64,000 nucleotides of DNA from Thermoplasmata archaeon (GTDB lineage Archaea; Thermoplasmatota; Thermoplasmata; GCA-020350865), in the NCBI GenBank assembly GCA_020348445.1, contig CP070751.1, forward strand, positions 420,494 through 484,493, read 5' to 3'. This document shows, in pieces, positions 21,475 to 45,074 of this stretch. Made by a program: the position numbers and the translations under genes. The notes beneath the pieces are model-generated. The model was not told where the DNA came from. It saw only the letters and a list, made by a program, of their open reading frames with translations, and did not search any database. How positions within the stretch are numbered: the stretch's first letter is position 1; every line of letters starts with the position of its first letter.

Positions 21475-21530
21475 GTCTTTTTGGTTACGTCAGCCCATCC
21501 TAAAAATAGCTTTGTATGGAAGGTGATTGC

Positions 21531-27614: not shown

Positions 27615-28490
27615 TTAAAATATTAGATGGTTTAAGATGCCCGCCTTTTCCTTATTCAGTTTGGTGCAAATGACTTCCTCTCTCCCTCCGATTGCCGAGA
27701 TAATATCCTCCCTCTTCTCAACCTCAGCCAAAATCACAGTTGCCGGCCCTGTCCCAGAAATCCCAGCAGTCACAGCACCAGCCTCAATCGCCTTCTTCGC
27801 AACTTCTGTATCCAATCCCATGGCCTCTCCATAAGCCATGCCGTTCATTCGAATCGCGGATATGTAATCACCTTTCATTGCCAGGTCATGGGCCTCAGCC
27901 AGAGTCCCCCTGATCCTCTTCAGTCTTTGAATATCCACCTCGGATTTCCTGATCTTCATCTTGGGAACATGGATTATAACCTCATAGTCCTCATCAAAGG
28001 GATACTGGTTCAATATCTCCCTTATGATATTATCCGTGACCACCACATTACCAAAATAAGTAGCGCAAGCATCGTCGAAAGCTCCCGTGAGTGTGACCTT
28101 GGCCAAAAGGGAAGCATTGATCCCCATATTGATTACTTCCATATCAGAATATTCCTTTCCAAGAGCCGCAAATGCCGCAAGCACGATGGCATTGGAAGCC
28201 GCACTCGAGCTTTTCAGTCCCCTCGATATAGGGATATCAGAAGTTGTGATTATCCTGGCTCCGTATTCTAATTCCAATTCAAATTTTTTCAGAACCTCCA
28301 AGACACAATGCTTTGCTAGGTCTGTATTTTCGCCTTCGTCCCCCCGAATCTCCACCTCGAAAATACCAGGCTCATTTGTAAGTTCCACTTTCGCCTCGGT
28401 CTTTAGTGCGACTCCAAAGGCCCCACCTTTACCCAAAGCAATGCCGTTTATTATGGTAGCAGCACCGTGACAGTACGCACTAGCTTCCAA
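27615..28490 (-). CDS. aroK: Archaeal (GHMP-family) shikimate kinase
   Basis: GAATIINGIA, PISRGLKSSSAAS, TGAFDDA and GISGTGPA motifs. Confidence 0.95.
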   Translation of the reverse strand: MEASAYCHGAATIINGIALGKGGAFGVALKTEAKVELTNEPGIFEVEIRGDEGENTDLAKHCVLEVLKKFELELEYGARIITTSDIPISRGLKSSSAASNAIVLAAFAALGKEYSDMEVINMGINASLLAKVTLTGAFDDACATYFGNVVVTDNIIREILNQYPFDEDYEVIIHVPKMKIRKSEVDIQRLKRIRGTLAEAHDLAMKGDYISAIRMNGMAYGEAMGLDTEVAKKAIEAGAVTAGISGTGPATVILAEVEKREDIISAIGGREEVICTKLNKEKAGILNHLIF

Positions 28491-28502: not shown

Positions 28503-29363
28503 TTATTTTTCAGTATCCAGTGCATCAAGAACCACTTTTTGCATAACATCGATAGGAGCAGATTCGCAAGTCCACTTCTCAAAGGCCATTACACCCTGAT
28601 AAATGAACATCTCATAACCATATATCACCTTAGCCCCGCTCTTTTGGGCTGCCAAAACAAGTTCAGTATTTTTAGGTGAATAGACCATGTCAAATACGAT
28701 TATGTCCTTTCTCAGTAGCTCTGGTGATATAGGACTGCCTTGAGGACCTCCTTTCATTCCCACAGGCGTGCAGTTTATGATCATGTCAACATCTTCGATT
28801 ATCTCCTCGATATCATCCAAAATGTTCACTTTGATTGTACCTTGGGATTTGAACTTTGTTGCCAATTCCCTTGCCCTTTCAAAGGTTCGGTTCGCAATGA
28901 CTACATCCTTTCCCATCCTGGCCAAAGGCAATGCAATTGCCCTTGCAGCACCCCCGGCACCGAGAATCAATATTGTCATGTGATGCTCAAGATCTATTTT
29001 ATTTCTTCTAATTGCCTCGACTGCAGCAGGTGAATCTGTGTTGTAACCCGTGAGCTTTCCTTCATCATTTACGATGGTGTTCACTGCCCCAAGATCCTCT
29101 GCCAATTCATCCACATCATCCAGATGCTCCATGACCTTGATTTTAAAGGGGAGGGTCACAGAAAGTCCCCGAAAATTCCTTTTCTTAAGGTTTTTCATGG
29201 TATTGGCAAGTTCGCTTTCCTCGATTTCAAAGGAATCGTAAACGTAATCAAGACCTAACTTTTTAAATGCGGCATTATGCATTTTCGGGGAGAGAGTGTG
29301 TTTTAAAGGTTTGCCTATTATTCCGCATATGCGTTTTTTGGAATTACTATCATTGCGTTTCAT
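28503..29363 (-). CDS. aroE: Shikimate dehydrogenase
   Basis: HTLSPKMHN, SVTLPFK, GAVNT, YNTD and GAGGAA motifs. Confidence 0.96.
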   Translation of the reverse strand: MKRNDSNSKKRICGIIGKPLKHTLSPKMHNAAFKKLGLDYVYDSFEIEESELANTMKNLKKRNFRGLSVTLPFKIKVMEHLDDVDELAEDLGAVNTIVNDEGKLTGYNTDSPAAVEAIRRNKIDLEHHMTILILGAGGAARAIALPLARMGKDVVIANRTFERARELATKFKSQGTIKVNILDDIEEIIEDVDMIINCTPVGMKGGPQGSPISPELLRKDIIVFDMVYSPKNTELVLAAQKSGAKVIYGYEMFIYQGVMAFEKWTCESAPIDVMQKVVLDALDTEK

Positions 29364-29393: not shown

Positions 29394-30101
29394 TCATAGG
29401 TTTTCAAGGGCATCCCATAATTCCAAAAGCGTCCTTATATCAACCTGCCCGTCTTCCACCTTCTTCTCGGGGTCCACTGCGGCATATACCATCTCACATC
29501 CAATTAACGGGGCCAAAACCCTTGTAAATTGCCCATAGGACCCCATTCCCATGACAGTGTATTTGTGATTCAAATCCTTGGCTGTTTTTCCACCCTTGGT
29601 CACATTTAGCACATCTTCGAAATTGTTGCTAGTTAAAACCACCTTGGCTATATCCCCTTCAGTTTCCTTGCATTGTTTTATCAGGGCAAAAATCTCGGAC
29701 CATGACGGTGTCTTAAAAAAATCATGATAGGAGATAATGGTTTTTATTTCCTCTTTTTTGGCCAAGGCAATCAACGGATCCCTCAAATTCCCCTCCATTT
29801 TCAATTCCAAATCAATGTAATCAAAGCCTGTCGTTATCGCCTCTTCAAGCAAAGCTGTCCTTTTCTCCTCATCCTCCTTGTAATCGCCGCCATCCCAATA
29901 GGGGCGGATCGTTAAAATTAGGGGCAAGCCAGTGTCCTTCTTTATTTCAGATAATCGGTTCAATATAGAAGAAGAAATTGGCTCTTTTAACTTATCCAGT
30001 CTCAGCTCAATTAGATTTGCACCAAGGGATTTGCATAAATCAGCTTGTGAGACTAAATCAGTTACGCTTTGTTCAGCCAATGAAACACATACCAAAGTCA
30101 T
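29394..30101 (-). CDS. aroD: Type I 3-dehydroquinate dehydratase
   Basis: IELRLD, ILTIR..WDGG, ISYHDF and IAKVV motifs. Start moved to ATG 30101. Confidence 0.93.
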   Translation of the reverse strand: MTLVCVSLAEQSVTDLVSQADLCKSLGANLIELRLDKLKEPISSSILNRLSEIKKDTGLPLILTIRPYWDGGDYKEDEEKRTALLEEAITTGFDYIDLELKMEGNLRDPLIALAKKEEIKTIISYHDFFKTPSWSEIFALIKQCKETEGDIAKVVLTSNNFEDVLNVTKGGKTAKDLNHKYTVMGMGSYGQFTRVLAPLIGCEMVYAAVDPEKKVEDGQVDIRTLLELWDALENL

Positions 30102-30114
30102 GCTCTCACGTTTT

Positions 30115-31155
30115 TTATTTCTCTTGGATGCTCTCATCCACCTTCGTCCCGAAATGCCTTCCCTTATCATCCATCCATACAAGTACAGAGTCGCCTTCAT
30201 TCAGATCCACTATGGAAACAGGCTTTTCTTGGGAAATCAATCGTATAGTCTCGGCATTCTGGAGTATTATATTGAACGTTCTGCCTTCATATTCAGCTTC
30301 CAGGAAAACCATGGGCCTTTTCTCGATCTTCACCCTTCCGAGAATCACAGGCCTTGTGCTTCCCTGGCTGTCAATGACAAGGACCTCGTCCCCGGACTTT
30401 AAATCGGACAGGTACTTTGTCTTTTCATTGGGGGCTAGAATATAAGAGTGAACAGGTCCAGCATTGACCCTAAAGGGCCTTGTGTCCGCAAACTCTGATT
30501 CAACAGATTCTGAGTGGACCAGGAACATGCCATTGGACTGCGAGCCTATTAGCATACCCTCGCCAACGTTCAACATAGAACACGTATCAATGCAGACCCT
30601 GTCCCCCATTCCCAGGGGTTTTAACTTGGTAATCCTGGCAGATACAAGGGAAAGGGAGCCTTTTTCAAATTCATCCATAAATCTCCGAAGGTTGTTTATC
30701 CTATTAAAATCCACGGTAGATAAAACAACACCATCCACTCCAACCTCCAAAGTCTCGAAAAACAATTTTGCATCCTCTACATTATTCACCTTAACAAGGA
30801 GTTTGGATTTCGAATTTTGAAATGCGGCAATAAGGTTTTCAACTGGTATAACCTTCCAGTTTTCGGCAGAAACAAGAACATAATCCATCTTCCCTTCCAG
30901 GGCTTTGGCCCTCTCCTCATCGGTTTTATCTTGGATCTCGATGTGTTCCCCCTGTCCATCATCCATCTTGATTTTCCCCTCTGAAAGAGAAATCAAATTG
31001 AACTTTCCCAGTTTTTGGAATATCTCCTGATCCTCCTCTCTCACAATTATATCTGTGAAATTGTTTATCAGTGCAGTTATGGCTATTTTCTTTCTAATTT
31101 CCTGCTTTTTGTGAACGTCCGAGTCTATCCATATGATTTTTTTCAACGTTTTCAC
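30115..31155 (-). CDS. aroB': 3-dehydroquinate synthase II (archaeal, oxidative deaminating)
   Basis: GDRVCIDTCS, RPFRVNAG, GRVKIEKRP, LQNAET and RHFG motifs. Confidence 0.95.
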   Translation of the reverse strand: MKTLKKIIWIDSDVHKKQEIRKKIAITALINNFTDIIVREEDQEIFQKLGKFNLISLSEGKIKMDDGQGEHIEIQDKTDEERAKALEGKMDYVLVSAENWKVIPVENLIAAFQNSKSKLLVKVNNVEDAKLFFETLEVGVDGVVLSTVDFNRINNLRRFMDEFEKGSLSLVSARITKLKPLGMGDRVCIDTCSMLNVGEGMLIGSQSNGMFLVHSESVESEFADTRPFRVNAGPVHSYILAPNEKTKYLSDLKSGDEVLVIDSQGSTRPVILGRVKIEKRPMVFLEAEYEGRTFNIILQNAETIRLISQEKPVSIVDLNEGDSVLVWMDDKGRHFGTKVDESIQEK

Positions 31156-31952
31156 CCTGTGATTTCCTTGTATGCATCATCAACTTCGGCGTCCTGGCAG
31201 ATGATTTTCACCAATGCCCGGGTCATTCCAATTATATTGTCATGCTGAAATATGTTCCTGCCAATGGAGATACCAGCGGCCCCTGCCTTGATTGCGTCGT
31301 GTACCATGGTAAGCACATCCATGTCAGAGTCGGTCTTGGGTCCCCCGGCAATGATAACAGGAACAGGGCATCCTGAGATGACCTCCTTGAAGGTATCAAT
31401 ACTTCCCGTGTAATTTGTCTTAATCACATCAGCACCCAACTCAGCACCAAGTCTGGCCACATGTTTTACCAACTCAACATCAAAAGGGTTCTTTACCCCG
31501 GGCCCTCTCGGATACATCATTGCCAAAAGGGGAATCTGCCATCTATTGCACTGACCAGATATGAATCCCAGATCCTGCAGCATCTCAGGTTCTGTCTCTG
31601 CTCCCACATTCACGTGAATTGAAACAGTATCTGCACCCATTAATAGAGCCTCCTCCACCTCAGCAACCAATACCTTGGCATTTGGATCAGGGCTCATTTT
31701 AGTACTTGCAGAAAGATGAAGTATGAATCCAATATCAACTTGGGCTTTTTCAAGTCCAAATAAAGCATTGCCTTTATGAAGAACCACGGCAGTTGCACCC
31801 CCTTCTGCCACCTTTTTTATGGTATCCTCCATATCAACGATACCCTTTATAGGGCCTGAAGATACACCGTGATCCATTGGTACTATCACAAATCGTCCTG
31901 TTTTTTTGTCCTGAATCCTTCGCAGACGGATATTCTTTCCAAGGTCTGTCAT
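31152..31952 (-). CDS. aroA': 2-amino-3,7-dideoxy-D-threo-hept-6-ulosonate (ADH) synthase
   Basis: DhnA-type class I aldolase (PMDHG, MMYPRG, GADVIKTNY, GRNIFQ), directly upstream of DHQ synthase II. Confidence 0.92.
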   Translation of the reverse strand: MTDLGKNIRLRRIQDKKTGRFVIVPMDHGVSSGPIKGIVDMEDTIKKVAEGGATAVVLHKGNALFGLEKAQVDIGFILHLSASTKMSPDPNAKVLVAEVEEALLMGADTVSIHVNVGAETEPEMLQDLGFISGQCNRWQIPLLAMMYPRGPGVKNPFDVELVKHVARLGAELGADVIKTNYTGSIDTFKEVISGCPVPVIIAGGPKTDSDMDVLTMVHDAIKAGAAGISIGRNIFQHDNIIGMTRALVKIICQDAEVDDAYKEITG

Positions 31953-31983: not shown

Positions 31984-32919
31984 TCACAGCACTCCCGCAA
32001 TAAACGAAAGTGTCAAAACAATGGTGAACGTCAAAATATAACCCTTGTGCAATTTTCTTGCCTTCGCTTTTGTATATCTTTTATATATGGAGCGGCAGAG
32101 ATTGAAGCATATGAAGTTCCATACAAACACAACTGTTAAAATGAGTATTTGTAGTATGATATGGGTTTGATAGACAGAAAAATAGGGGATGGCCCAGATA
32201 ACCAAACCGGGAAAAGAGAACGCAAAAGAAGTGGCAGCGGCAGCCTTGGGCCCGAAACGAACAGGTGTTGTATTTTTTCCACCTGCTTTGTCATTTTCAA
32301 GGTCCCTTAAATCCTTTGCCAGGGTTTCGGCAATGGCCATAAAGAGCATCAAGGCTATAAGGAAGTACAGCCCGTTAAATACGTTAACAAGAGCTATGTT
32401 CTCATACCGTATAAGATATGCAGCTATCGCAAAATAATAAAGCAGTCCAAATCCCACCCAGAACAGCTGGGAGATTATGGGGCGGCCGTCCATCTTAAGT
32501 GGCTTCATGGCATATTGATAGGACAGTAATATCAACAAGAAGGCAGAAAGGAATATCAAGATATCGAGGTAGAATGCCAAAATCAATCCAATAGAATACA
32601 ATATGATGGCTTGATTCCTGGCAGCTTTCTTTGAAACAACACCAGTGCACAAGGGCCTTTTCTTTCTCGATGCCTCTGAACTTCTGCAATCTGAATTAAA
32701 GTCCCCAAGGTCGTTCATGGTACAGGCTCCTGCATCTGCAATCACGGCAGTCATAATAAATAGTATAAAATGGGGATTTGGAGCATGTTGGGCAATGATG
32801 GCATAAAAACCCATTGAAGCAAAAACATCGAGCCATACAAGTTGCTGCGGCCTAGTTAAAATGAAATGGCCCTTTAGCTTCTGGCCCAATGTGAACTTCT
32901 TTTTTTCCAATTTCTTCAC
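31984..32919 (-). CDS. UbiA-superfamily prenyltransferase
   Basis: Multi-TM protein with Asp-rich motifs NDLGDFNSD and KDLRDLEND..G..T.PV, plus KRPL.TG. Confidence 0.9.
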   Translation of the reverse strand: MKKLEKKKFTLGQKLKGHFILTRPQQLVWLDVFASMGFYAIIAQHAPNPHFILFIMTAVIADAGACTMNDLGDFNSDCRSSEASRKKRPLCTGVVSKKAARNQAIILYSIGLILAFYLDILIFLSAFLLILLSYQYAMKPLKMDGRPIISQLFWVGFGLLYYFAIAAYLIRYENIALVNVFNGLYFLIALMLFMAIAETLAKDLRDLENDKAGGKNTTPVRFGPKAAAATSFAFSFPGLVIWAIPYFSVYQTHIILQILILTVVFVWNFICFNLCRSIYKRYTKAKARKLHKGYILTFTIVLTLSFIAGVL

Positions 32920-34238
32920 GCGCCTTCAACTACCTCGGATTTACCAGATACCGCATCAACAACCCTGGAAAGGGGTTTTCCCGGTCGAATCTCGCTGTAA
33001 TTGTACAAACTCCCGGGAGGAACCAGCATAACCTCCACGTTCTCCTTTAACACAGATTCGAAGTTGGATTTGATCTCGTTCTTCAGATTTGGATATTGAT
33101 CCCTGTCCCTGTGCTCGGCAATTATCTGCGTGCGGCCTTTCATTACCTTGATCTTGTACCAGACACCGTTTAATTTTGATTTGTAAAGCATCTCCTCCAG
33201 CTCAATTGGGAAGAACTTCTTTTTACCAATTGATAACTCAGTGCGCTTTCGTCCCAGGATCTTCATTGTGGGAAGGGGAAGACCGCAGGGACACTGGTCC
33301 TTTTCTATGATAATCACATCCCCTGTTTCGTACCTGAGAATGGGCATGGCCTCCCGCCATGTTGGGGTGACAACTGACTTTGCCCTCTCCCCAGGCGCAG
33401 CCTCAGTGCCGTCATCATGATATATCTCAGTGAACATGACAAAGGACGGCAGGTGCAGCACGTTATTTTCGCAGGGTATCGCCGCTCCGATTTCGTTTTG
33501 TCCAAGAAGTGATAGGAATTTTGCACCGTACAGATCGCCAAGAACCTTTCCCCTGGAATTTGCACAGGGCTCTGCCCCTGAGACAATCAATTTGATGCCT
33601 ATGCTTTTTGGATCAACACCCTGGTCCATGAGAATGTTGGCATAGGAGAAGGCATCAGTTGCTGCGGCACCCAAAATCGTGGGTCTGAGCCTCTTCAGGG
33701 CATCAGCCACCTCAAGGGGAGGGTACATGTTGTTTCGTGTACCCATGGGAATTATGGTAACCCCTGCTTTCTGATTTATGAGATCGGCAGAACGTCCTGC
33801 AAGGGTTCGGGTGTAGGGATAACATAATGCAACCCTATCCTCGGGGGACATTAACTTCTGAAACACAGGAAGGCATATTGCTAGGTCAATGGACCTCTCA
33901 AGCTCGTCTTTGGTAACCCAGATGGGAACATGTCCTCCTGTTGTACCTGAGGTCTGGGAGTAAATCAGGCATTTTTGCCCTGGCGTAACTGCCAGCATAT
34001 CAGTGGGGTCAATTTCCACAAGTTCGGATCTTTTAGTAAGGGGAACCTTTTCCTTGAAATCTTTGATGCTCTTGATATCCCTTCCCTTAACGCCAGCAAC
34101 TGTCAATTTCCTGGAATAGAATTTACTTTTATAGGCGTAGTCCACGGCCTTTTTTAGACGTTTTAAGACCGAGCTCTCCTTATCTGCCATCTTGATTATA
34201 CCAGGAAACTTCTGCAACATCTTTGCCTTAAAACCCAT
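32916..34238 (-). CDS. Phenylacetate-CoA ligase (PaaK)/F390-synthetase family adenylating enzyme
   Basis: SQTSGTTG P-loop, GAEP, PILRYETGD and ILGRK motifs. Confidence 0.88.
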   Translation of the reverse strand: MGFKAKMLQKFPGIIKMADKESSVLKRLKKAVDYAYKSKFYSRKLTVAGVKGRDIKSIKDFKEKVPLTKRSELVEIDPTDMLAVTPGQKCLIYSQTSGTTGGHVPIWVTKDELERSIDLAICLPVFQKLMSPEDRVALCYPYTRTLAGRSADLINQKAGVTIIPMGTRNNMYPPLEVADALKRLRPTILGAAATDAFSYANILMDQGVDPKSIGIKLIVSGAEPCANSRGKVLGDLYGAKFLSLLGQNEIGAAIPCENNVLHLPSFVMFTEIYHDDGTEAAPGERAKSVVTPTWREAMPILRYETGDVIIIEKDQCPCGLPLPTMKILGRKRTELSIGKKKFFPIELEEMLYKSKLNGVWYKIKVMKGRTQIIAEHRDRDQYPNLKNEIKSNFESVLKENVEVMLVPPGSLYNYSEIRPGKPLSRVVDAVSGKSEVVEGA

Positions 34239-34248
34239 AACATACCTC

Positions 34249-35325
34249 CTATGCTCTCCTATTCATAAAATCGTACCGCAATCGATCTTTACGGGGAATT
34301 ATTGAATCCTGGGGAACGTACCCTGACAACATCAGATGATCTGCGCAAACAATTGCAGATACTGCCTCTGCCACAACAAGAACCCTGGGTGTATAGTTCG
34401 CATCGAACCTGCCCTCAGTTGCCATTTTCGTGTTCTTCATGGTCCTTAAATCCACGCTCTTTTGGGCTATTAAAATCGATGGTGTGGGCTTCACCGCAAA
34501 CCTGAACACCACAGGTGGTCCATAGGTGATTCCCCCGAGAACCCCACCAGCGCGGTTTGAGCTTGTGGTGACAGAGCCTCCTTGTGTTACAATGGGATCA
34601 TTGAATTCCGAAGCTCTCATGCGTGCAGAATCTAGCCCGTCTCCCAACTCGAAGGTCTTTATTCCAGGTATATTCAGTATGGCGTGCCCCAAATCGGCCT
34701 GGAATCTGTTGAATGCCGGAGCGCCCAGGCCCGAGGGAAGATTTTGAATCTGAATCTCAATTATCCCCCCTGTTGTGTCGCTGTCCCTCTTGGATTGCTC
34801 AGCCAACTTTTCAATGATTTGTTCTAAATTGTTATTATCCACCTTTACTCCGCCAAGCTCAAGCATAGTGCTTTTTATTGCTATCTTCTTGAGAAGACAA
34901 ATTCTCTTGGCAACTGCACCAGCTGCAATAGTCGATACCCAGGTCCTTCCGCTGGCCCTGGATCCCCCTCTCCAGTCGATATGACCGTACTTCATCCTGT
35001 ACGTCAAATCGGCATGCCCTGGCCTTGGAGTGTGCATTATCTTTTTGTACTTTTCGCTCTCCACGTTCGAGTTCCTGACTATAATTGAAATCGGAGTTCC
35101 GATGGTGTAGCCCTCGAAGACACCGCTTAAAATCTGGAAGTTGTTCTCCTCGACACGTCTTGTCAGAAGGGGATAAGGGACATCTCTGTCAAGCTCACTT
35201 TTTATATGCTGGCGAGAAAGTCTTATTCCTGCTGGGCATCCGTCGATTACACAGCCAATTGCATCTCCGTGGGATTCTCCCCAGGTTGTGACCCTGAAGA
35301 TGTTTCCCAAAGTGTTTCCTGCCAA
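34249..35325 (-). CDS. aroC: Chorismate synthase homolog (divergent)
   Basis: MAGNTLG..FRVTTWGESHG, RPGHAD, SNRAGGVLGGI and KPTPS motifs. Several signature residues are changed (see findings). Confidence 0.85.
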   Translation of the reverse strand: MAGNTLGNIFRVTTWGESHGDAIGCVIDGCPAGIRLSRQHIKSELDRDVPYPLLTRRVEENNFQILSGVFEGYTIGTPISIIVRNSNVESEKYKKIMHTPRPGHADLTYRMKYGHIDWRGGSRASGRTWVSTIAAGAVAKRICLLKKIAIKSTMLELGGVKVDNNNLEQIIEKLAEQSKRDSDTTGGIIEIQIQNLPSGLGAPAFNRFQADLGHAILNIPGIKTFELGDGLDSARMRASEFNDPIVTQGGSVTTSSNRAGGVLGGITYGPPVVFRFAVKPTPSILIAQKSVDLRTMKNTKMATEGRFDANYTPRVLVVAEAVSAIVCADHLMLSGYVPQDSIIPRKDRLRYDFMNRRA

Positions 35326-35344: not shown

Positions 35345-36289
35345 CTACTGGACGAAAACCAATTTTCTTTTGGATGAGGGGTCGTCAGCCAGTTCGCGAA
35401 CAAAAAACTTGCCTTTTGAGCTCAATTCAAATAACATAACAAATAATATGGGAAATATCGAGGCTAAAAAGAATCCTGTGGAAAACTGCCATGCAGTGTA
35501 TATGGAATCAAAAAGTGCCAATGTCATTAGGATCAATATAAAAGGAATATAGGCGACAACTCCAATCAATACTTTTAATTCAATGCCATTTGTGGGATTT
35601 TTCTTGGCTCGAATCATATTGACTATTGTGATTCCTGATATGGCCCCAAATCCCAGAAGAAAACCTCCGAGGATTATCATCACCTGATGTTCAAAATCAT
35701 ACGGAAACTGATAGACATAACTGTTGAGCATCTGAATGGATATTACCCCGAACAATATTGGTAAAATGCTCCCTTTGATCATTCGGGTTCTGTATCTGTA
35801 ATTCGAGAACCGCTCTTTCTGTTTGTCAAAGAGACTTTCCTCTTGGGCTTCGGTTCCAGTCAGCTCATCGAGATCTGACAGATAATCCTCCATTTCCTGC
35901 TCCTCGGTTTGTGTAAGTACCCCTTCTGCCACCTCGGCTTCAGCTTCTTCATAGGGCTCCTTGATCTCTTCGGCAACCTCTGTCCCCTCAGGTGCAGCAG
36001 CTCCTTCCTCCTCTGTAATTTCCAAATAGAAGTTGCATGTATAGCAGTAGTATCTGTTATATTGCTGTATATATGCGGCCTTTTGATTGCATTTGGGGCA
36101 TAAATATTCGGCTGTTTCTTTTATTTCAGGTTCTGGTTGTGCTTCCCTTTCCTCCTCTTTTTCCCCAGGCTCTTTTGACGTCACATACTTGTTGCAGGAG
36201 AAGCAGTAGTATCTGTTGTTTTCCTTGATAAAAGTGGCCCTTCTGTCACAAGAGGGACATTTAATCTGAACATCTTCTTCCAAAGACAT
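35345..36289 (-). CDS. Membrane protein with two N-terminal Zn ribbons and an acidic linker
   Basis: CPSC...YYCFSC and CPKC...YYCYTC motifs, Glu-rich stretch and about 4 TM helices. Ends 20 bp before aroC. Confidence 0.8.
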   Translation of the reverse strand: MSLEEDVQIKCPSCDRRATFIKENNRYYCFSCNKYVTSKEPGEKEEEREAQPEPEIKETAEYLCPKCNQKAAYIQQYNRYYCYTCNFYLEITEEEGAAAPEGTEVAEEIKEPYEEAEAEVAEGVLTQTEEQEMEDYLSDLDELTGTEAQEESLFDKQKERFSNYRYRTRMIKGSILPILFGVISIQMLNSYVYQFPYDFEHQVMIILGGFLLGFGAISGITIVNMIRAKKNPTNGIELKVLIGVVAYIPFILILMTLALFDSIYTAWQFSTGFFLASIFPILFVMLFELSSKGKFFVRELADDPSSKRKLVFVQ

Positions 36290-36451
36290 ACCACTGACCT
36301 CTTCAATACAATAATTTATTTACCATCTCCGCAAGCACTATTTCGAGTTATAAGAAGATATCCTGCCTAATTAATTTTTTGTTATTATTTTCAGAGTTTT
36401 AATTTAATCGACGAAATGAGGGGTATTTATGGGCTTTTCTGGTATTTTTTC

Positions 36452-38338
36452 TCAAAAAACCTCTACAAGGGACCTTCTTCCCACTGGAATCATAAGAAGG
36501 TCAGCTGCGATTATAAGGCCAGATACCGCAACAATTAGAGTGGGTATCTCAGGCAAGCCCCGCTTTGTGGGGGGTGTAAGTCCTGGAATCAGATCAATTC
36601 CCTGGGGCAGATATCTCTGATCTCTGTTGTAATTGATAAACACCATAACAGGGTGTTTTGATTTGACCTTCACTGTAGAGCCCAAGGTTATGTTCTCCCA
36701 GTCCAAATGGATCTCCTCGCTGTCCCCATCATCAACTGCTATTCGGGGAGTGGAATCCAGGGCATAATAGTTGTGGGGGTCCCTCGTGGTCCATTCAGGG
36801 GGCTGTTTGAACTGGGTATCTTCGATCATCATGTCCATGTAGTAGTAGCTGCTTTCCGAGAAATCAAAGGTGACAGACTCATGGACGTCCATTTTGGCAG
36901 AGTACGGTTTGATAAGCATATCGAAGTCCACTTCTACATCATTGTTCCCCTCTCTGAGGTTCACGACAGTGAGATATGCCTGGCTCCAGATTGGAATCTC
37001 GAATTCTGTTGATGCAGGATAGGGCACCCAGCCGTGAGGATAGAATTCAGTGATTTTTTTGTAGACAGTGAAGTATTCTTCCCCAGACATGCTTCTCCTA
37101 TTATCTTCCCTCAAATACCATGTACTGTTGGCGAATGTGTAGACCAGTATGGGATCGCTTGACCTTAGATGCGCCCATTCATATGAGGAATATTCCCGTA
37201 ATTTGTAGGCAACCTTGAAATCGAACAGTCTGAGCTCACCCGGATTTAAATATCCTTTGAACGTGCCTTGATTGCCGTTTTTGTCCTTTAAATCGATTGT
37301 TGCCCCAGTGGGAGCCGAAATAAGTATTTTACCGAAACAAGGGAATAGAAAGTCTTTTCCGTCTTTTCCAAAAACCTGGACAAATCCCTGATCCGACTGT
37401 ATGCCCGCAACTATGGACACAGGTTTGTCGGCACTGATTAGAACCAGGTCATCGTCGAATCCGTACTGCTCAAATATGGGATTACGGGTATAATCCCAGC
37501 CTTCGAACCTGTCAAGGATGAGAGTGGCATCGTCGTTTTTGTCAGAATAATCCCATACATTGACAGTTGTATCTGCCTCCAGGGCTGAAATCCAGCAATC
37601 TCCCGTAATTCTGGTAAATATCTTTTTTCCGTAGGCAGAGTAAATGCCCTCCCATCCATCCCAGTAGTAATCCACGATATAATCATAGCCTCTGTCATCC
37701 ATGGTTCCCATTGGAAATAATTTATGGTGCATTACTGAGATGGGATAGTTGCTTGTAACCTTGACAATCCCGGAGATCATTCGAAAGCCCTGGCCAACCA
37801 TCCAAGTGTTTATCTGAATCTGTCTTGTTTCGTACTCTCCCAAATGAATGGTCTTTGTGAGATTTTCAGGTTTTTGAATCTGATCCAACCAAACTATTTC
37901 TGCGCCATCACCCAGTACCCATTTTCCACATACCCCCAAATCACAATCGAATATTGTATCATTTATTGCGGTGCCGTTGAGCCATTCAATACGGATTTTT
38001 GCACCGTTCTCATAGGAAAAAAATTGAATGTTGCTGAAATTTGCCATGGGGTAGCTTCTATAGGTTGTATCTTCATATCCTGCCCACCATGTATATATTC
38101 GATCCTGCATCAAGACAGTGGGGGGTGGAACATAGAATATAAAGTAATCGTTCACAAATGTTGTAATGTCCGAGGAGTGATAGTCAGTATGTTCTACTTG
38201 CTCAGATGTCACCCTCATAAAATCGGAAACTGCGGTGTCCATGGATTGTCTGTGTAAAAAGATATCGCTCATGGGCAGGAAGATAAGACCCACAATACAT
38301 ATTATCAATAATATGGGTTTTATAGCTCTAAGGAACAT
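36452..38338 (-). CDS. Membrane-anchored surface protein with IgGFc-binding-like beta repeats
   Basis: N-terminal signal/TM, recurrent (I/V)xSxxP(I/V)xV motifs and a C-terminal TM. Confidence 0.7.
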   Translation of the reverse strand: MFLRAIKPILLIICIVGLIFLPMSDIFLHRQSMDTAVSDFMRVTSEQVEHTDYHSSDITTFVNDYFIFYVPPPTVLMQDRIYTWWAGYEDTTYRSYPMANFSNIQFFSYENGAKIRIEWLNGTAINDTIFDCDLGVCGKWVLGDGAEIVWLDQIQKPENLTKTIHLGEYETRQIQINTWMVGQGFRMISGIVKVTSNYPISVMHHKLFPMGTMDDRGYDYIVDYYWDGWEGIYSAYGKKIFTRITGDCWISALEADTTVNVWDYSDKNDDATLILDRFEGWDYTRNPIFEQYGFDDDLVLISADKPVSIVAGIQSDQGFVQVFGKDGKDFLFPCFGKILISAPTGATIDLKDKNGNQGTFKGYLNPGELRLFDFKVAYKLREYSSYEWAHLRSSDPILVYTFANSTWYLREDNRRSMSGEEYFTVYKKITEFYPHGWVPYPASTEFEIPIWSQAYLTVVNLREGNNDVEVDFDMLIKPYSAKMDVHESVTFDFSESSYYYMDMMIEDTQFKQPPEWTTRDPHNYYALDSTPRIAVDDGDSEEIHLDWENITLGSTVKVKSKHPVMVFINYNRDQRYLPQGIDLIPGLTPPTKRGLPEIPTLIVAVSGLIIAADLLMIPVGRRSLVEVF

Positions 38339-38366
38339 CCTGCTCTTCCTCCGTTGTATTATATTC

Positions 38367-40847
38367 TTACTTACTAAGGGTTTTTAGGAACTTCCCCTTT
38401 CCAGTGAAGGAGAGGGTTCCAACTATTCCTTTTCCTCCAGCAGCTACGGTTCCAATATCAGTTGCCATAAGTACAGCCAGAACCGGCGGCAGTAGCCAGA
38501 AAGGATCTCCTGTCGTGGTTCTCTGGGTCGTGGGTATTATGCTCAATGGGATGTCCATGTCCTGGGGCTCACACGAGTAATCCCTTGCATATCTCACCAT
38601 GAGCATCACATCCTTATCGGCATGAATATGCATCATCTGGATCACGGATTCAAGCTCGTCCTGATTATCAGGCTCAACATCGTCCCTTTCATCACCATTG
38701 TAGTCCTCGTTATCATCCACAACGATTCTGTAGATTTCGTATGCATCAAGGGTGGCACCGGATGGTTGATTGTCAAGCCACGTTCCGTCCCAGCCGACTG
38801 AGGTATCATCCTCCAAGGCTATGATATACACGATGCATTGATGGTGGATCGCCAGATCCCATTTTTGCTCTGCCGGGTAGAAGTCGAATCCCTCTTTGAA
38901 GGTGGATATCTGTGTTTCGTCGAAAGCGTTGTCATCATTTGCCATCCAGAGCTCCACGCGAATTGGCCAATCCGAGATGATTCTGACCCATTTTACCTCG
39001 GCAATGTAATTGTTGGAGAAGGGGCCTGAGCACATGGATGATATTGTCACCTGCTCCCCAGGTTCAACTGTAAACTCATCATCGCCCTCGGAGGTATCGT
39101 CGAAATCAAGCTCGACATGCGCCTCCTTTTCAAGTCCTGTTATTGTAATTGCAGCCGACATTGGTACATAGTATCTTGAGCCAAGGAATCCGTAGACCTG
39201 TGTGTGAAAATTGTTGTCCCATATTCCGCCGTATATGGTAACAGGTTTTTCAGCCTTCACAACCACCCAATCGGCCTCGAAATTTCCAGAATCCACAGCC
39301 CTTTTTATGTAATCGCTTTCCATAATTTCTTTGGCGGCTTGAGGATCCTCCCAATCAACATCCCAGTCAGGCTGATAACCAAAATATTGATAGTTGTTAT
39401 CCAGTTCATTGTTGTCTCCTGCATCATCACCACCACACATCGTGTCCACGACAAAAGTGCTTGCCCACTGGAAATTCTCCCAATCATTTAACGTGATTTC
39501 TCGGGAGTCATCACCATCTGATTTATCTATTATTGTTATGTGGTTATCATCGTCGTAACTTGCTATCATGAGGTCACGGTGCACAAAACCAAAGAACTCG
39601 TCACCGTAAAAGGACCATATCGCATCGTCGGATAGGCCATTTGCAAACCATTCTGTGTTCACACCGTGGGCCACCTCATCGTCTCCATCGACCTCGTCGT
39701 TCGGGTCGCAGTCGTCTGCAAGATCGGGTATCCCATTGTCGTTCTTGTCGATGTACCCGTCAGTTACCGTCATCTTCTGAACAGTGACGCGTCCTGAAGA
39801 TTCAACCTTGATGACCCCGTCCCACATCCACCAGTCCCGAGTAGTGTAGTTAAGGATTCCCTGGTATTTATTAAGGGTTCCGGTCCACAGGATATGGTTT
39901 TCAACATACTCCAGATCAGGTGAGTTCAGGGGTCTTCTTGCAGGGTCGTACAAGTCTATTCTCCATTTTGAACGATCAAGGGTACGCCATTCACGGTCAG
40001 CGCGGTCGTTTTCATCGTCGTTGTCATCCTCCCAACAATCCTCGTCAATCCAATTATAAAATGGTTCTGGATCGTCATCAGGGTAACTGTTTGGATTGTT
40101 GGGATTTGTACCCTCATACAGCTCCTGCCCGTCACAGTAGCCGTCCCCATCAGAGTCAACTGAGTCACCGTCATTATCATCTTCTATTCCGCCAGTATCC
40201 TCATCAATTAATCCATCGTCATCATTATCACGGCCATCAGCACGATCCTCATTATTACTCCCGTCGTCATCATCATCACGGGGATCTTCATTTACTCGAC
40301 CATCCCTATCCCTATCTGGATTACCATCACCCCGATATATTCCACCCCACCAGCCGTGGATGGTATTTGCCGGGTACTCGTCTTTGAAGGCCTGGGTAAA
40401 TATGTGGCCCTTTAGCATTGTGACAGTGATACGATTGTTGTTATCGTAACTACCTATGGCAATTGCACCTTCATCAGAAATCCAGGAATCTCCATAAAAT
40501 GTGATTCCGCACCTCTCTTCGTCATTGGTCTGCCCGTTGTTGTCATCTTGATTATGACCATTGTAAATTCCCCATGGACAATTCTGTTCGTTGTCTTCCT
40601 GTTCATATATTGCATCAATGGGACTCCAGTAGAATATGAATTCCTTGTTTACAAAGGGGGTGTAGGCACTTGTTTTCACATCCTGGGTGATCTCCTCGAT
40701 TATTCCTTTATCATGTGTGACCACATGTGTCGAGGGTAAAAGCAGTGTTCCGAACAGCATCAGCATTATTGCCAAGACTGTAAAATAACCCAGTATTATT
40801 TCTTTAGCCTTCGGTCTATTATTTGCATTGGATTTTGCCGATTTCAT
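38367..40847 (-). CDS. Paralogous membrane-anchored surface protein with an Asp-rich Ca-binding (TSP3-like) insertion
   Basis: Same architecture as the neighbouring gene, plus DNDDDGLIDED and DSDGDGYCDGQE..GTNP motifs. Confidence 0.72.
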   Translation of the reverse strand: MKSAKSNANNRPKAKEIILGYFTVLAIMLMLFGTLLLPSTHVVTHDKGIIEEITQDVKTSAYTPFVNKEFIFYWSPIDAIYEQEDNEQNCPWGIYNGHNQDDNNGQTNDEERCGITFYGDSWISDEGAIAIGSYDNNNRITVTMLKGHIFTQAFKDEYPANTIHGWWGGIYRGDGNPDRDRDGRVNEDPRDDDDDGSNNEDRADGRDNDDDGLIDEDTGGIEDDNDGDSVDSDGDGYCDGQELYEGTNPNNPNSYPDDDPEPFYNWIDEDCWEDDNDDENDRADREWRTLDRSKWRIDLYDPARRPLNSPDLEYVENHILWTGTLNKYQGILNYTTRDWWMWDGVIKVESSGRVTVQKMTVTDGYIDKNDNGIPDLADDCDPNDEVDGDDEVAHGVNTEWFANGLSDDAIWSFYGDEFFGFVHRDLMIASYDDDNHITIIDKSDGDDSREITLNDWENFQWASTFVVDTMCGGDDAGDNNELDNNYQYFGYQPDWDVDWEDPQAAKEIMESDYIKRAVDSGNFEADWVVVKAEKPVTIYGGIWDNNFHTQVYGFLGSRYYVPMSAAITITGLEKEAHVELDFDDTSEGDDEFTVEPGEQVTISSMCSGPFSNNYIAEVKWVRIISDWPIRVELWMANDDNAFDETQISTFKEGFDFYPAEQKWDLAIHHQCIVYIIALEDDTSVGWDGTWLDNQPSGATLDAYEIYRIVVDDNEDYNGDERDDVEPDNQDELESVIQMMHIHADKDVMLMVRYARDYSCEPQDMDIPLSIIPTTQRTTTGDPFWLLPPVLAVLMATDIGTVAAGGKGIVGTLSFTGKGKFLKTLSK

Positions 40848-41057: not shown

Positions 41058-41960
41058 TCAGGTCTCCTTTTTACCTGTAATTGTATAGCCAAAGACCGTG
41101 CTCACCGACAGTGCGTTGGACTTGCATTCCCTTGCGCAGCGGCCGCATTTGACACAATCCAGCTTGCTTTTTAAATCGTCCTCTGTGGGATCCAGGCCCA
41201 TGGGGCAGACTTTTTTACACCTCTCGCATTGGGTGCACCATTTGAAATCGTACCTTCGCTTTATGGATGAGAACGGATTCAAAAGCGAGAAAACGGCTCC
41301 CAGTGGACAGAAGTACCTGCACCATGCTCGGCCGTGTGTGAAATAGCTGAACGTGAAGTAAAATGCGAACAAGGCCAGATGATATATGAGCCAAAAGGCG
41401 CTGACGGTCTGCCAGGTCAGCCAGTACGGCACCACCCCCAACAAAGCTCCGAAACACAGGTACCTGCACCAGAAAATGGAGGCTGTGAGGACGGCCAATA
41501 TAACGACACCTACGAGGTAGATGTACTTCCACAATCTCAACCAATCAGGTGGTCTATATTTATGGGTACAAACCTTGTTGCAGGTGTCAAGGATAAGACC
41601 AAAGGGACACAGCCAACCGCAGATCGCCCTGCCCAATGCAGTGCCAAAACCAAGTACAACTCCAAATACATAAAAAGGCAACCGGAAGTTAATAACATAC
41701 TGCTGCAGCATACCCACAGGACAGCCCAGCCACGCGAGCTCGCAGGCCTGGCAGTTGAGTGTGCACGTGATTCCACTCGTTCTCGGAATTGGTGCATGCC
41801 ACCCACCGGGTAGCTTCCTGAAGATACCGAGTCTGTGAAATCCAAAACTAAGTACCTGGCTTACCAAACGGAACTTCGGGCCTCCCAGTAGTATGACAAT
41901 CATCATAACCACTATGATTATGATCATACTTCCAAGGATTAACGGAAATTCTCCTGCCAT
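41058..41960 (-). CDS. Membrane 4Fe-4S binding protein (NapH/CcoG-like polyferredoxin)
   Basis: CGWLCPFG and WCRYFCPLG motifs, and two CxxCxxCxxxC ferredoxin motifs. Confidence 0.9.
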   Translation of the reverse strand: MAGEFPLILGSMIIIIVVMMIVILLGGPKFRLVSQVLSFGFHRLGIFRKLPGGWHAPIPRTSGITCTLNCQACELAWLGCPVGMLQQYVINFRLPFYVFGVVLGFGTALGRAICGWLCPFGLILDTCNKVCTHKYRPPDWLRLWKYIYLVGVVILAVLTASIFWCRYLCFGALLGVVPYWLTWQTVSAFWLIYHLALFAFYFTFSYFTHGRAWCRYFCPLGAVFSLLNPFSSIKRRYDFKWCTQCERCKKVCPMGLDPTEDDLKSKLDCVKCGRCARECKSNALSVSTVFGYTITGKKET

Positions 41961-42504: not shown

Positions 42505-43875
42505 TTATTTCTCACAAAAGGTCTGGTGTATCGCTGAGATCGTCTTTTTTAAATCAATTCTTTTAATTATGAAATGTGAAGCCACTGACGAAGCTCCTGC
42601 CGAGATCATCTCCACATTGACTCCAGCTTTGGAGACAGCAGAGAATATCTTACCTGCCAGTCCTCTATTTTCCCGTGAGCCTTCACCCACAACACATACA
42701 AGTGCTATATCGCTTAGATGGTCTATATGTTCAATTACACCGCCCTGGACTCCATTTAGGGCTTCATTGCAAATTGAAAGGTCATTTTTATGGATTAAAA
42801 GGCTGAGCTGGGTATGGGATGTTGAAACTGAATAGATATTTATATTGGAGTCACCCAGGGTGCTTGTAACTTCCTTTAACACTCCTGGCCTGTATCCTGC
42901 ACCAGCACCCGATACCTTTATTTCTATTAGGTCTTTTGAATACACCACACTTTTTATGACTTTTTCCGTCTTAAATCCCGTTTTTTCTATGGTGGTACCG
43001 TCTTTGTTAGGTTTCAATATATTTTTGATGACAATGGGTATATCCTTCTCTCTTGCAGGTTGTACAGTCCTGGGATGCAAAAGTCCTATTCCAAAATAGG
43101 CAAGCTCCGCAGCCTCATCATAGGAGAGCCTTTGGATGGTATGGGCATTTTCAATGATACTTGGATTGGCGCTCATGAATCCATCCACATCCTTCCAAAG
43201 CTCCAGTATGTCAGCATTCAATGCATTAGCGATAACGGCAGCACTGTAGTCTGAGCCGTTTTTTCCGAATGTGGTGGTCCTCCCTTTTGAATCGCAGCCA
43301 AAAAATCCAGTGATCACTGGGATGGTACCCTTTTGAATACCGGGAAGGATGTTCTTTTTAAGATTCTCTTTGGTCTTAATAAGATCCGCGGTGGCATTTA
43401 AGAAAATCCCGTCCGTCACAACACCCGCCAAATCCGCCTCATAGGCCTTGGCCTTGACATTCTTTGAGAGCAGCATACCTTCCATGATATAGGCACTTGC
43501 GCGCTCCCCAAAGCTGAGTATTAGGTCCTTTGTGCGGGGCGTGAGTTCCTCTGTATAGACAACACCGTATAATAGCCGCTCCAATCTTAAAATGTGCTTG
43601 TTTAGGGTCTCGAGGATATCCTTTAAGACCGTTTTATCTGAAATGGTTTTCTTGACCATGAAAGTGTGTCTTTTCCATATCTTTTTTATGAATTCATCCA
43701 CTTCATGCCTTTTAATTCTGGATTGTGCGATAAATTCCCTGATTTCGTTTGTCTGGCCAGAAAGAGCCGATACCACCACGACCTTTTTTCCCTTCTCTTT
43801 TTGGATGATATTTCCGACATCCTTCATCATCTTGGGGTCCTTTATGGTGGCGCCACCGAATTTCATGACCTTCAT
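42505..43875 (-). CDS. lysC: Aspartate kinase
   Basis: MKFGG, VVVSA, SFGE, TTFGKNGSDYSA and KDVDG motifs, plus two ACT domains. Confidence 0.95.
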   Translation of the reverse strand: MKVMKFGGATIKDPKMMKDVGNIIQKEKGKKVVVVSALSGQTNEIREFIAQSRIKRHEVDEFIKKIWKRHTFMVKKTISDKTVLKDILETLNKHILRLERLLYGVVYTEELTPRTKDLILSFGERASAYIMEGMLLSKNVKAKAYEADLAGVVTDGIFLNATADLIKTKENLKKNILPGIQKGTIPVITGFFGCDSKGRTTTFGKNGSDYSAAVIANALNADILELWKDVDGFMSANPSIIENAHTIQRLSYDEAAELAYFGIGLLHPRTVQPAREKDIPIVIKNILKPNKDGTTIEKTGFKTEKVIKSVVYSKDLIEIKVSGAGAGYRPGVLKEVTSTLGDSNINIYSVSTSHTQLSLLIHKNDLSICNEALNGVQGGVIEHIDHLSDIALVCVVGEGSRENRGLAGKIFSAVSKAGVNVEMISAGASSVASHFIIKRIDLKKTISAIHQTFCEK

Positions 43876-43952: not shown

Positions 43953-45074
43953 TTAAATGTAACCCTCCATTTCAGCCAGCTCTGCATTCATTATGGAGCA
44001 TCCAGCAGCCCCTCTTACTGTATTATGTATTAAAAGGTAGAACCGTATTTTGCCATGGATCCTTTTTATTCGGCCGATTGTGACGGCCATACCCCTTGCC
44101 CTTTCAGGCTCTCCATTGTAAACATCAAATATTGGTTGGGGCCTGCTTTCATCTTCGGTTACGATAATGGGCCTTTTTGGTGACGTAGGAGTTTTATTAT
44201 CAAGACCTTCATAACCAGATAGAGCTCTTTTTACCTCCTCTTCTGAAACATCTTCCTTAAAATCCACCAAAACGGACTCAAGATGTCCGTCTCTTACAGG
44301 AACCCGTGCACAGCTTGCATATACATTGATAGGTGAATGTTCTATCCCAGAATCTGTCAATTTACCCAGTATCTTCCTGCATTCCACCTCGATTTTCTCC
44401 TCCTCGGATTGAATATATGGAACTATATTTCCCGTAATGTCCAGGGAGGGCACACCAGGATATCCAGCTCCCGAGAGGGCCTGGTAGGTGGTAACGACCA
44501 CGCTCTTTATTCCAAAGGCCTCATGAAGCGGTTTTAAGGCCGTGGCAAGGCCTGTTACAGAGCAGTTGGCATTGGTCACCACATACCCGGATTTTGTCTT
44601 CTTTTGATGCTCCACAAGAGCCAGATGATCTGGATTGATATCGGCGATAAGCAGGGGAACATAATCTGCCATACGATTGGCACTGGCATTTGAGAAAACG
44701 AAAAAACCCAAAGATGCCAGATCCATTTCCACATCCTTGGCTATTTTAGGCGGCAGGGCGCTGAATATCAGTTTTATTTCCTTATCCTTGAAGGTTTTAG
44801 GATGGATTTGCTCCACATTCATCTCGCCTATTCCCTCGGGCATTATTTCCTTTAATCTCCAGCTTGCTATATCCCTATAAATATGACCCTGGGATTTTCC
44901 TGAAGCTACCACAACTCGCAAATCGAACCACGGATGGCCCCAAAGAAGCGCAACAAATCTTTGTCCCACGGCTCCTGTGGCTCCAATTACCGCAACTGGG
45001 ATTTTATCCAGATTCTCACGACCCTGACATTCACGATATATAGAATATTTTCTTTTTTTCATTCCAGATAGCAT
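43953..45074 (-). CDS. asd: Aspartate-semialdehyde dehydrogenase (archaeal type); true start probably about 20 codons downstream
   Basis: GATGAVGQRF, NANCS, QALSGAG, SCARVPVRDGH and HNTVRGAAG motifs. Confidence 0.95.
   Translation of the reverse strand: MLSGMKKRKYSIYRECQGRENLDKIPVAVIGATGAVGQRFVALLWGHPWFDLRVVVASGKSQGHIYRDIASWRLKEIMPEGIGEMNVEQIHPKTFKDKEIKLIFSALPPKIAKDVEMDLASLGFFVFSNASANRMADYVPLLIADINPDHLALVEHQKKTKSGYVVTNANCSVTGLATALKPLHEAFGIKSVVVTTYQALSGAGYPGVPSLDITGNIVPYIQSEEEKIEVECRKILGKLTDSGIEHSPINVYASCARVPVRDGHLESVLVDFKEDVSEEEVKRALSGYEGLDNKTPTSPKRPIIVTEDESRPQPIFDVYNGEPERARGMAVTIGRIKRIHGKIRFYLLIHNTVRGAAGCSIMNAELAEMEGYI

Follow-up and report, generated by a model that had tools for sequence, protein, structure and literature searches.

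We describe here a gene for a chorismate synthase-like protein encoded on the minus strand of a 64,000-nucleotide stretch of DNA from a Thermoplasmata archaeon (GenBank assembly GCA_020348445.1, contig CP070751.1, positions 420,494 to 484,493; the whole stretch is hereafter the window, and all positions refer to it unless another locus is named). The protein belongs to a separate, monophyletic paralogous family that is sister to canonical chorismate synthase (AroC; EC 4.2.3.5), and we use the name AroC* for this D48/N61/F307/N310 subfamily of chorismate-synthase-fold proteins. On balance, and with somewhat better than even confidence, we favor the reading that AroC* is a flavin mononucleotide (FMN)-dependent phospholyase whose substrate is shikimate-3-phosphate or a near derivative of it rather than 5-enolpyruvylshikimate-3-phosphate (EPSP), and that it would feed a ligase, a ferredoxin and a UbiA-family prenyltransferase encoded nearby. 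Since it occurs here without an EPSP synthase, the gene probably marks the start of a new shikimate-pathway branch, in which shikimate-3-phosphate would be turned into an aromatic compound bound to the membrane.

A single function is ascribed to chorismate synthase, and AroC* bears on that view: one Arg-to-Asp switch may re-aim a unique flavoenzyme. Were AroC* to take shikimate-3-phosphate, the shikimate pathway would possess an unknown branch point one step before EPSP, and this would explain why certain archaea keep six shikimate genes without EPSP synthase or any chorismate user. The partnership with a ferredoxin and an adenylating enzyme, which recurs across Methanothrix, Bacillota, Planctomycetes and Thermoplasmatota, points to a widespread unknown metabolite. 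Source databases call these proteins “chorismate synthase,” and NCBIfam has no separate model for AroC*. Because AroC* passes the curated thresholds, its genes are annotated as aroC and are read in pathway reconstructions as evidence of aromatic amino acid synthesis. In the full-text literature searched, which excludes most subscription journals, we found no description of the paralogous family or of the gene module in which it occurs.

A Sister Family of Chorismate Synthase

The open reading frame (ORF) encodes 358 amino acids from a TTG start codon and is covered over its full length by PF01264 (Chorismate_synt; 361 bits, model positions 1-327 of 327). An AlphaFold2 model computed with 123 homologues as input has a mean predicted local distance difference test score of 96.5, and its top Foldseek matches are the solved chorismate synthases 7RCA, 1UM0, and 1QXO (template modeling scores of 0.82-0.84; 25-33% identity in structural alignment), the last being the Streptococcus pneumoniae complex with FMN and EPSP. 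A preliminary description of this DNA had quoted a series of retained and altered motifs, and all of them are present where it placed them: GESHG (residues 16-20), LDRDVPY (45-51), RPGHAD (101-106), RASGRTW (123-129), TIAAG (132-136), and GRFD (305-308). Its statement that the phosphate-binding histidine and arginine residues are retained is likewise borne out (H19, H104, R127, R306), and the remainder of the catalytic and phosphate set (S18, R101, R123, S125, D308) is also present and conserved. By fold and by these residues, AroC* resembles a functional AroC; at the arginine that binds an EPSP carboxylate and at its aspartate partner it does not, having Asp48 and Asn61 in their place.

The altered residues were mapped through a chain of alignments, from 1QXO to the canonical AroC of a Riflebacteria genome (L037) and from L037 to the query (P0001). 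By this route Asp48 corresponds to S. pneumoniae Arg39, as had been proposed, and Asn61 to S. pneumoniae Asp54; alignment to the fungal structure 7RCA equates Asp48 with fungal Arg46. For the P. brasiliensis enzyme, modeled on 1QXO, R46, R103, and R362 are given as the ligands of the two EPSP carboxylates, with R129 and R354 as those of the 3-phosphate (PMC11633415). Fungal R46 thus upholds the earlier claim that the replaced arginine contacts an EPSP carboxylate, though not the more specific claim that this is the enolpyruvyl one. AroC* retains the equivalents of R103 (R101), R362 (R314), R129 (R127), and R354 (R306), together with both catalytic histidines, both serines and the aspartate of the GRxD motif, and F307 and N310 flank R306, D308, and R314 in the same active-site loop. 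On these alignments AroC* has an intact phosphate-elimination machinery, while an acid stands in for one of the three arginines that bind carboxylates; a substrate bearing one carboxylate less than EPSP fits this combination.

Both the subfamily and its residues are directly visible when the query and 17 relatives that share the aspartate are aligned with 100 canonical archaeal and bacterial AroC sequences. The two groups differ in their fixed residues at exactly four positions: position 48 is Asp in every member of the variant clade and Arg in all 100 canonical sequences; position 61 is Asn in the variants and Asp in 100 of 100 canonical sequences; position 307 is Phe against His in 98% of canonical sequences; and position 310 is Asn against Cys, Thr, or Ile. 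Asp48 is kept in each of 22 diverse members, whose identity to the query is only 46-76%. A single clade on a long stem (support 0.997) takes in the 17 D48 sequences, and none of the 100 canonical sequences falls inside it. Patterns derived from the subfamily alignment (D[WY]RGGSRAS and similar) proved too general, returning 80 loci that were mostly canonical AroC, and these canonical loci served as the comparison set. In a large protein collection, the D-N-(F/H)-N signature occurs in 111 of the 121 nearest clusters at 90% identity and in only about eight of the 150 nearest representatives at 50% identity; the family is therefore real, but small beside canonical AroC.

The substitutions first listed for this protein are diagnostic only in part. 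The Arg-to-Asp change and GRFD, which is found in a single one of the 100 canonical enzymes, do mark the family, whereas RASGR(T/E)x and xIAAG also vary among the canonical archaeal enzymes of genomes that contain AroA, the EPSP synthase (RASGRTT, RFSGRIT, GQFSGRLT). The preliminary description had held that its case would fall if such substitutions were common in bona fide AroC; this is so for RASGRTW and TIAAG, but the aspartate at position 48 appears in none of the 100. Two further family-specific changes, N61 and N310, had been overlooked. Loss of a basic loop residue, the equivalent of S. pneumoniae R45, was considered as an additional family marker and rejected, bacterial AroC* often keeping Lys or Arg at this position. 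Within AroC*, a sub-clade (P0035-P0047; approximately 62-66% identical to the query) has GNHD where the query has GRFD, so that Asn, followed by His, takes the place of the Arg that matches the phosphate ligand R337/R354. This indicates some plasticity at the phosphate site of AroC*, which we note as a caveat.

Gene Content of Genomes with AroC*

The window forms part of a single 5.16-Mb contig, a closed genome with a stated CheckM-type completeness of 82%, in which there is one PF01264 gene. Searches of this genome with hidden Markov models found no EPSP synthase, no enzyme of the TrpE/PabB/MenF type, no AroQ chorismate mutase, no UbiC or MqnA, and neither prephenate dehydratase nor prephenate dehydrogenase (families PF00275, PF00425, PF01817, PF00800, PF02153, PF04345, and PF02621). 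A tblastn search of the same genome with AroA proteins from relatives in the class and from one bacterium returned nothing below E = 0.3, and a second closed genome of the genus is likewise without AroA. The pathway context of a functional AroC, namely EPSP synthase and chorismate users in the same genome, is accordingly not found here. UbiD was also searched for as a pathway indicator and set aside as uninformative; UbiD-family enzymes also serve the archaeal mevalonate pathway.

The same division is observed directly across relatives. Among 60 relatives of the same class, AroA is present in all 28 genomes that have a full-length canonical AroC, where it is mostly adjacent, and in none of the three genomes of the window's own genus that have AroC*. 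A subfamily profile run over 401 Thermoplasmatota genomes gave bimodal scores, with 11 genomes at 531 bits or more and all others at 393 bits or less; with two congeners added, 13 AroC* genomes were found in five families. Eleven of these, from three families and including two closed genomes, carry AroC* only, and AroA, CM_2 (chorismate mutase), and prephenate dehydratase were found in none of them; indole-3-glycerol-phosphate synthase, looked for in seven of the eleven, was also not found. G201 (closed) and G079, on the other hand, carry both AroC* and a canonical AroC, and in these genomes aroA, the canonical aroC, and chorismate mutase are adjacent at another locus. Taken over the 13 genomes, this pattern means that EPSP and chorismate metabolism follows the canonical gene and ignores AroC*. 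Beyond the phylum, AroC* is found alongside canonical AroC and AroA in a Riflebacteria genome, a Methanothrix chromosome, and metagenome-assembled genomes (MAGs) of Bacillota and Methanosarcinales. Inside and outside the phylum taken together, at least six genomes hold it as a second copy in addition to canonical AroC. The earlier suggestion that AroC* acts on a substrate lacking the enolpyruvyl group, such as shikimate-3-phosphate, gains support from these results: its own genome has no EPSP synthase or chorismate user, and AroA and chorismate mutase track canonical AroC.

Partner Genes, the Proposed Reaction and Its Alternatives

Homologues of the ligase and of a NapH-like ferredoxin adjoin AroC* in three Thermoplasmatota lineages, a bacterium, a “proteobacterium” MAG, Planctomycetales, Methanothrix, Methanosarcinales, and Bacillota, and the trio is seen in loci L040, L041, L044, L045, L047, L053, L055, L068, and L070. 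In two loci, L045 (17762-20188; a bacterium) and L070 (11040-13454; a Bacillota MAG), the ferredoxin and the ligase form a single polypeptide of about 800 amino acids, encoded directly beside or near AroC*. The flanking genes in Methanothrix and Bacillota are unrelated, and the trio is therefore a self-contained module; Riflebacteria and a Promethearchaeota MAG have AroC* without these partners within 10 kb. The protein in the window thus belongs to the subfamily by signature, by clade, and by its Fer4_5/PaaK-like neighborhood.

In the window, the AroC* gene heads a tight run of eight minus-strand genes that ends with shikimate kinase. The run is part of a conserved cluster of 14 genes shared by five Thermoplasmatota families, in the fifth only in part, and comprising, in order, aspartate-semialdehyde dehydrogenase, aspartate kinase, the ferredoxin, three proteins denoted p826, p628, and p314, AroC*, the ligase, UbiA, 2-amino-3,7-dideoxy-D-threo-hept-6-ulosonate (ADH) synthase, 3-dehydroquinate synthase II (DHQS-II), AroD, AroE, and shikimate kinase. 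The aroA gene is never within this cluster in the five families, and the cluster of G201 holds its own shikimate gene copies despite the canonical aroA-aroC-chorismate mutase set elsewhere in that genome. UbiA adjoins the ligase in all five families, yet joins the module only in Thermoplasmatota. The link that had been drawn from AroC* to the adjacent ligase and prenyltransferase consequently stands for the ligase, which together with the NapH-like ferredoxin is a constant partner, and is restricted to Thermoplasmatota for UbiA.

From this context we infer a substrate, a product, an order of steps, and a role for each partner. AroC* would be a neofunctionalized chorismate synthase paralogue that keeps the flavin-dependent 1,4-elimination of an allylic 3-phosphate, and its chemistry is likely the same as that of AroC, in which the elimination depends on reduced FMN. 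The machinery presumed to serve this reaction, shared with AroC, consists of the two catalytic histidines, the two serines, the phosphate-binding arginine pair, and the aspartate near flavin N5; what AroC* has lost is the invariant arginine for one EPSP carboxylate, now Asp48, with N61, F307, and N310 as recast neighbors. A private archaeal-type shikimate pathway, running from aspartate kinase through shikimate kinase, would deliver shikimate-3-phosphate. With no EPSP synthase in the genome, AroC* would take this compound, or a derivative without the enolpyruvyl carboxylate, and eliminate the phosphate. The expected product is 3,4-dihydroxycyclohexa-1,5-diene-1-carboxylate, which could aromatize to 3- or 4-hydroxybenzoate. 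The PaaK/BagE-like ligase would then activate the ring carboxylate, the NapH-like ferredoxin would supply or remove electrons, whether for FMN reduction or for a net redox step, and in Thermoplasmatota UbiA would add a prenyl chain to yield a membrane-bound compound.

Comparison with known systems places this proposal in perspective. AroC* differs from AroC (PF01264, TIGR00033) in the exchange of Arg48/Asp61 for Asp48/Asn61, of His307 for Phe and of Cys310 for Asn, in its separate clade, in having the NapH-like ferredoxin and PaaK-like ligase, not aroA, as neighbors, and in occurring either where EPSP synthase and chorismate users are lacking or in addition to a canonical AroC. The chorismatases FkbO/RapK/Hyg5 and XanB2 yield 3,4-dihydroxycyclohexa-1,5-dienecarboxylate or 3-/4-hydroxybenzoate for secondary metabolites, after which a CoA-ligase-type domain activates the ring acid; these enzymes start from chorismate, hydrolyze the enolpyruvyl ether and need no flavin. 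The product and the ligase role proposed here would match theirs, but AroC* is unrelated to them in sequence and fold, and would reach the same skeleton from shikimate-3-phosphate, one step earlier and never via EPSP or chorismate. The 3-amino-4-hydroxybenzoate (3,4-AHBA) routes of GriI/GriH and BagB/BagC/BagE share with the window the combination of DhnA-type aldolase, DHQS-II-like enzyme and PaaK-like benzoate ligase, and the window proteins have weak NCBIfam matches to BagB, BagC, and BagE. The aldolase and DHQS-II here, however, reach scores above the equivalog cut-offs, or near them, for genuine ADH synthase and DHQS-II. AroD, AroE, and shikimate kinase come next, so that the ring passes by way of shikimate-3-phosphate instead of leading straight to 3,4-AHBA. 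Finally, the ferredoxin partner has the Fer4_5 membrane topology and two-cluster domain of the NapH/MauN quinol-dehydrogenase ferredoxins, but its score falls short of their cut-off, it has no NapG/NapC/NapA genes around it, and some genomes have it joined to an adenylate-forming enzyme in one protein.

We extend this proposal more tentatively, and with a little less than even confidence in its parts taken together, to a fuller picture. In it, AroC*, the NapH-like ferredoxin, and the PaaK-like ligase would constitute an undescribed three-protein module distributed among anaerobic archaea and bacteria, through which the shikimate pathway would be left at shikimate-3-phosphate by a new route; some Thermoplasmatota would retain the whole shikimate pathway solely to feed it; and its product would be a new prenylated, membrane-bound aromatic or alicyclic compound, redox-active or structural, that is linked to cell-surface proteins.

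Several observations weigh against shikimate-3-phosphate as the substrate and against the route drawn from it. AroC* scores above the two NCBIfam equivalog cut-offs for aroC (355.5 against 321 bits, and 338.3 against 212 bits for TIGR00033). Arg39/R46 may bind either of the two EPSP carboxylates. In G001, a closed genome of the same genus that has AroC* only, with no AroA, canonical AroC, indole-3-glycerol-phosphate synthase, or other tryptophan genes, a lone TrpE/PabB-like gene (Anth_synt_I_N plus Chorismate_bind) stands with a class-I glutamine amidotransferase (L145, 9923-12009). This pair hints at a chorismate-like compound in that organism, although it may instead act on the AroC* product or be a relic. 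A fragmented Planctomycetales MAG has AroC* as its sole AroC together with PF00275 genes. The UbiA protein of the window is not a 4-hydroxybenzoate polyprenyltransferase in the strict sense (TIGR01474, 29 bits against a cut-off of 275); its nearest models are PRK12884, the top match at 96.5 bits against a cut-off of 269, and others resembling digeranylgeranylglyceryl phosphate (DGGGP) synthase, so that C-prenylation of the ring is uncertain and O-prenylation is as likely. Lastly, no shikimate gene adjoins the trio in most genomes outside Thermoplasmatota.

Some of these points would suit an ordinary chorismate synthase altered by lineage drift, supplied with EPSP by an unrecognized, non-homologous enolpyruvyl transferase, and whose chorismate is converted to the prenylated product by an unrecognized route. 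The full-length PF01264 match, the equivalog scores, the retention of every catalytic and phosphate ligand, the G001 gene pair, and the Planctomycetales MAG, where AroA accompanies AroC*, are all compatible with such an enzyme. We nonetheless regard it as improbable, given that in the 13 Thermoplasmatota genomes AroA and chorismate mutase follow canonical AroC rather than AroC*, without exception, that AroC* is second to a canonical AroC in at least six genomes, that the charge is reversed at an EPSP-carboxylate-binding arginine invariant in all 100 canonical enzymes (ligand role from PMC11633415), and that the window's own genome has no known chorismate consumer.

The trio's occurrence without shikimate genes in Methanothrix, Bacillota, and several bacteria raises another prospect, that AroC* lies outside shikimate chemistry and is the flavin redox or lyase subunit of a membrane complex whose substrate, phosphorylated or carboxylated, is unrelated to that chemistry, the shikimate genes in Thermoplasmatota being neighbors on other grounds. 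The Peripla_BP_6, FG-GAP/ASPIC, and Reg_prop proteins added in bacterial clusters, as well as the two large surface proteins in the Thermoplasmatota clusters, would agree with a membrane complex of this kind. Yet AroC* keeps every residue holding the 3-phosphate and the region of the ring, and the trio in five Thermoplasmatota families lies interspersed with the genes of a full pathway to shikimate-3-phosphate that would otherwise be useless there; we judge this prospect marginally less probable even than an ordinary chorismate synthase.

A third alternative departs least from our proposal, and although we consider it unlikely we give it more weight than the other two. Here the substrate of AroC* would be a shikimate-3-phosphate derivative already modified by a partner, in effect a pseudo-EPSP whose neutral or cationic group is seen by Asp48: the ligase might activate or esterify the C1-carboxylate, or the 5-hydroxyl might carry an ether or ester (a prenyl group from UbiA, or an acyl group from the BagE-like enzyme). 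The ligase is a constant neighbor, sometimes fused to the ferredoxin, and its best model match is the ester-forming BagE/FevW; UbiA is nearest to O-prenylating DGGGP-synthase-like models, and an aspartate would suit a hydroxyl or amino group. Unmodified shikimate-3-phosphate is nevertheless favored by the retention of R101 and R314, which accords with a substrate still bearing one free carboxylate, as that compound does, and UbiA is not in the module outside Thermoplasmatota.

Features of the Window

The genes of the conserved cluster are given in Table 1. A search of the protein collection with the ligase returned only generic PaaK-like clusters. The AroD ORF as listed overlaps the end of the DHQS-II ORF by 86 nucleotides (window 29394-31155, minus strand); its Pfam match starts at residue 38, and the true AroD start is therefore probably a downstream codon.

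Table 1. Genes of the AroC* cluster in the window, in order of position.
Feature	Positions	Strand	Evidence
Archaeal GHMP-type shikimate kinase, makes shikimate-3-phosphate	27615..28490	-	TIGR01920, 246 bits (cut-off 127)
Shikimate dehydrogenase (AroE)	28503..29363	-	NF001319, 289 bits (cut-off 252)
Type I 3-dehydroquinate dehydratase (AroD)	29394..30200	-	TIGR01093, 173 bits (cut-off 139)
3-Dehydroquinate synthase II (AroB')	30115..31155	-	PF01959, 427 bits
ADH synthase (archaeal AroA')	31152..31952	-	TIGR01949, 358 bits (cut-off 299)
UbiA-family prenyltransferase	31984..32919	-	PF01040, 96.6 bits; NF009523, 96.5 bits; TIGR01474, 29 bits
PaaK/BagE/F390-synthetase-like adenylate-forming ligase	32916..34238	-	NCBIfam BagE_FevW, 119 bits; PaaK, 117 bits; all below cut-off
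AroC*, chorismate-synthase-fold FMN enzyme	34249..35325	-	PF01264 match, AlphaFold2 model, subfamily positions, monophyly
p314: two N-terminal zinc ribbons, acidic linker, 4 transmembrane helices	35345..36289	-	Sequence, hydropathy
p628: N-terminal transmembrane helix, large ectodomain, C-terminal transmembrane helix	36452..38338	-	Sequence, hydropathy
p826: N-terminal transmembrane helix, large ectodomain (one TSP3 repeat match), C-terminal transmembrane helix	38367..40847	-	
NapH/MauN-like membrane polyferredoxin: Fer4_5, 4 transmembrane helices, 20 Cys	41058..41960	-	TIGR02163, 82.7 bits (below cut-off); PF12801
Aspartate kinase	42505..43875	-	PF00696 and ACT domains; in conserved cluster
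Aspartate-semialdehyde dehydrogenase, supplies ADH-synthase substrate	43953..45074	-	PF01118/PF02774; in conserved cluster

The membrane and surface proteins of the cluster merit separate mention. The p314 gene lies 19 nucleotides upstream of AroC* and is kept upstream of it in Thermoplasmatota; family searches of p314 gave no match, and p628 and p826 likewise have no family assignment. All three are conserved with the NapH-like ferredoxin in the AroC* cluster (35345-40847 and 41058-41960) in the five Thermoplasmatota families, a pattern suggestive of a complex at the membrane or cell surface that is connected with the pathway product. The additional Peripla_BP_6, FG-GAP/UnbV_ASPIC, and Reg_prop-like proteins of bacterial AroC* clusters (L044, 13454-21016; L045, 8925-17826; L053; L072) parallel these archaeal surface proteins.

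Two further genes were noted beyond the cluster. A PhzF-family isomerase is encoded on the plus strand at 21516-22370, 5 kb from the cluster, and the substrate of PhzF, dihydro-hydroxyanthranilate, shares its ring type with the product proposed for AroC*; a phenazine-like route via this gene stays speculative, the gene being outside the conserved cluster. At 23294-24622, on the minus strand, lies a fused gene for ThiD (phosphomethylpyrimidine kinase) and ThiN (thiamine-phosphate synthase), an arrangement that is ordinary for archaea.

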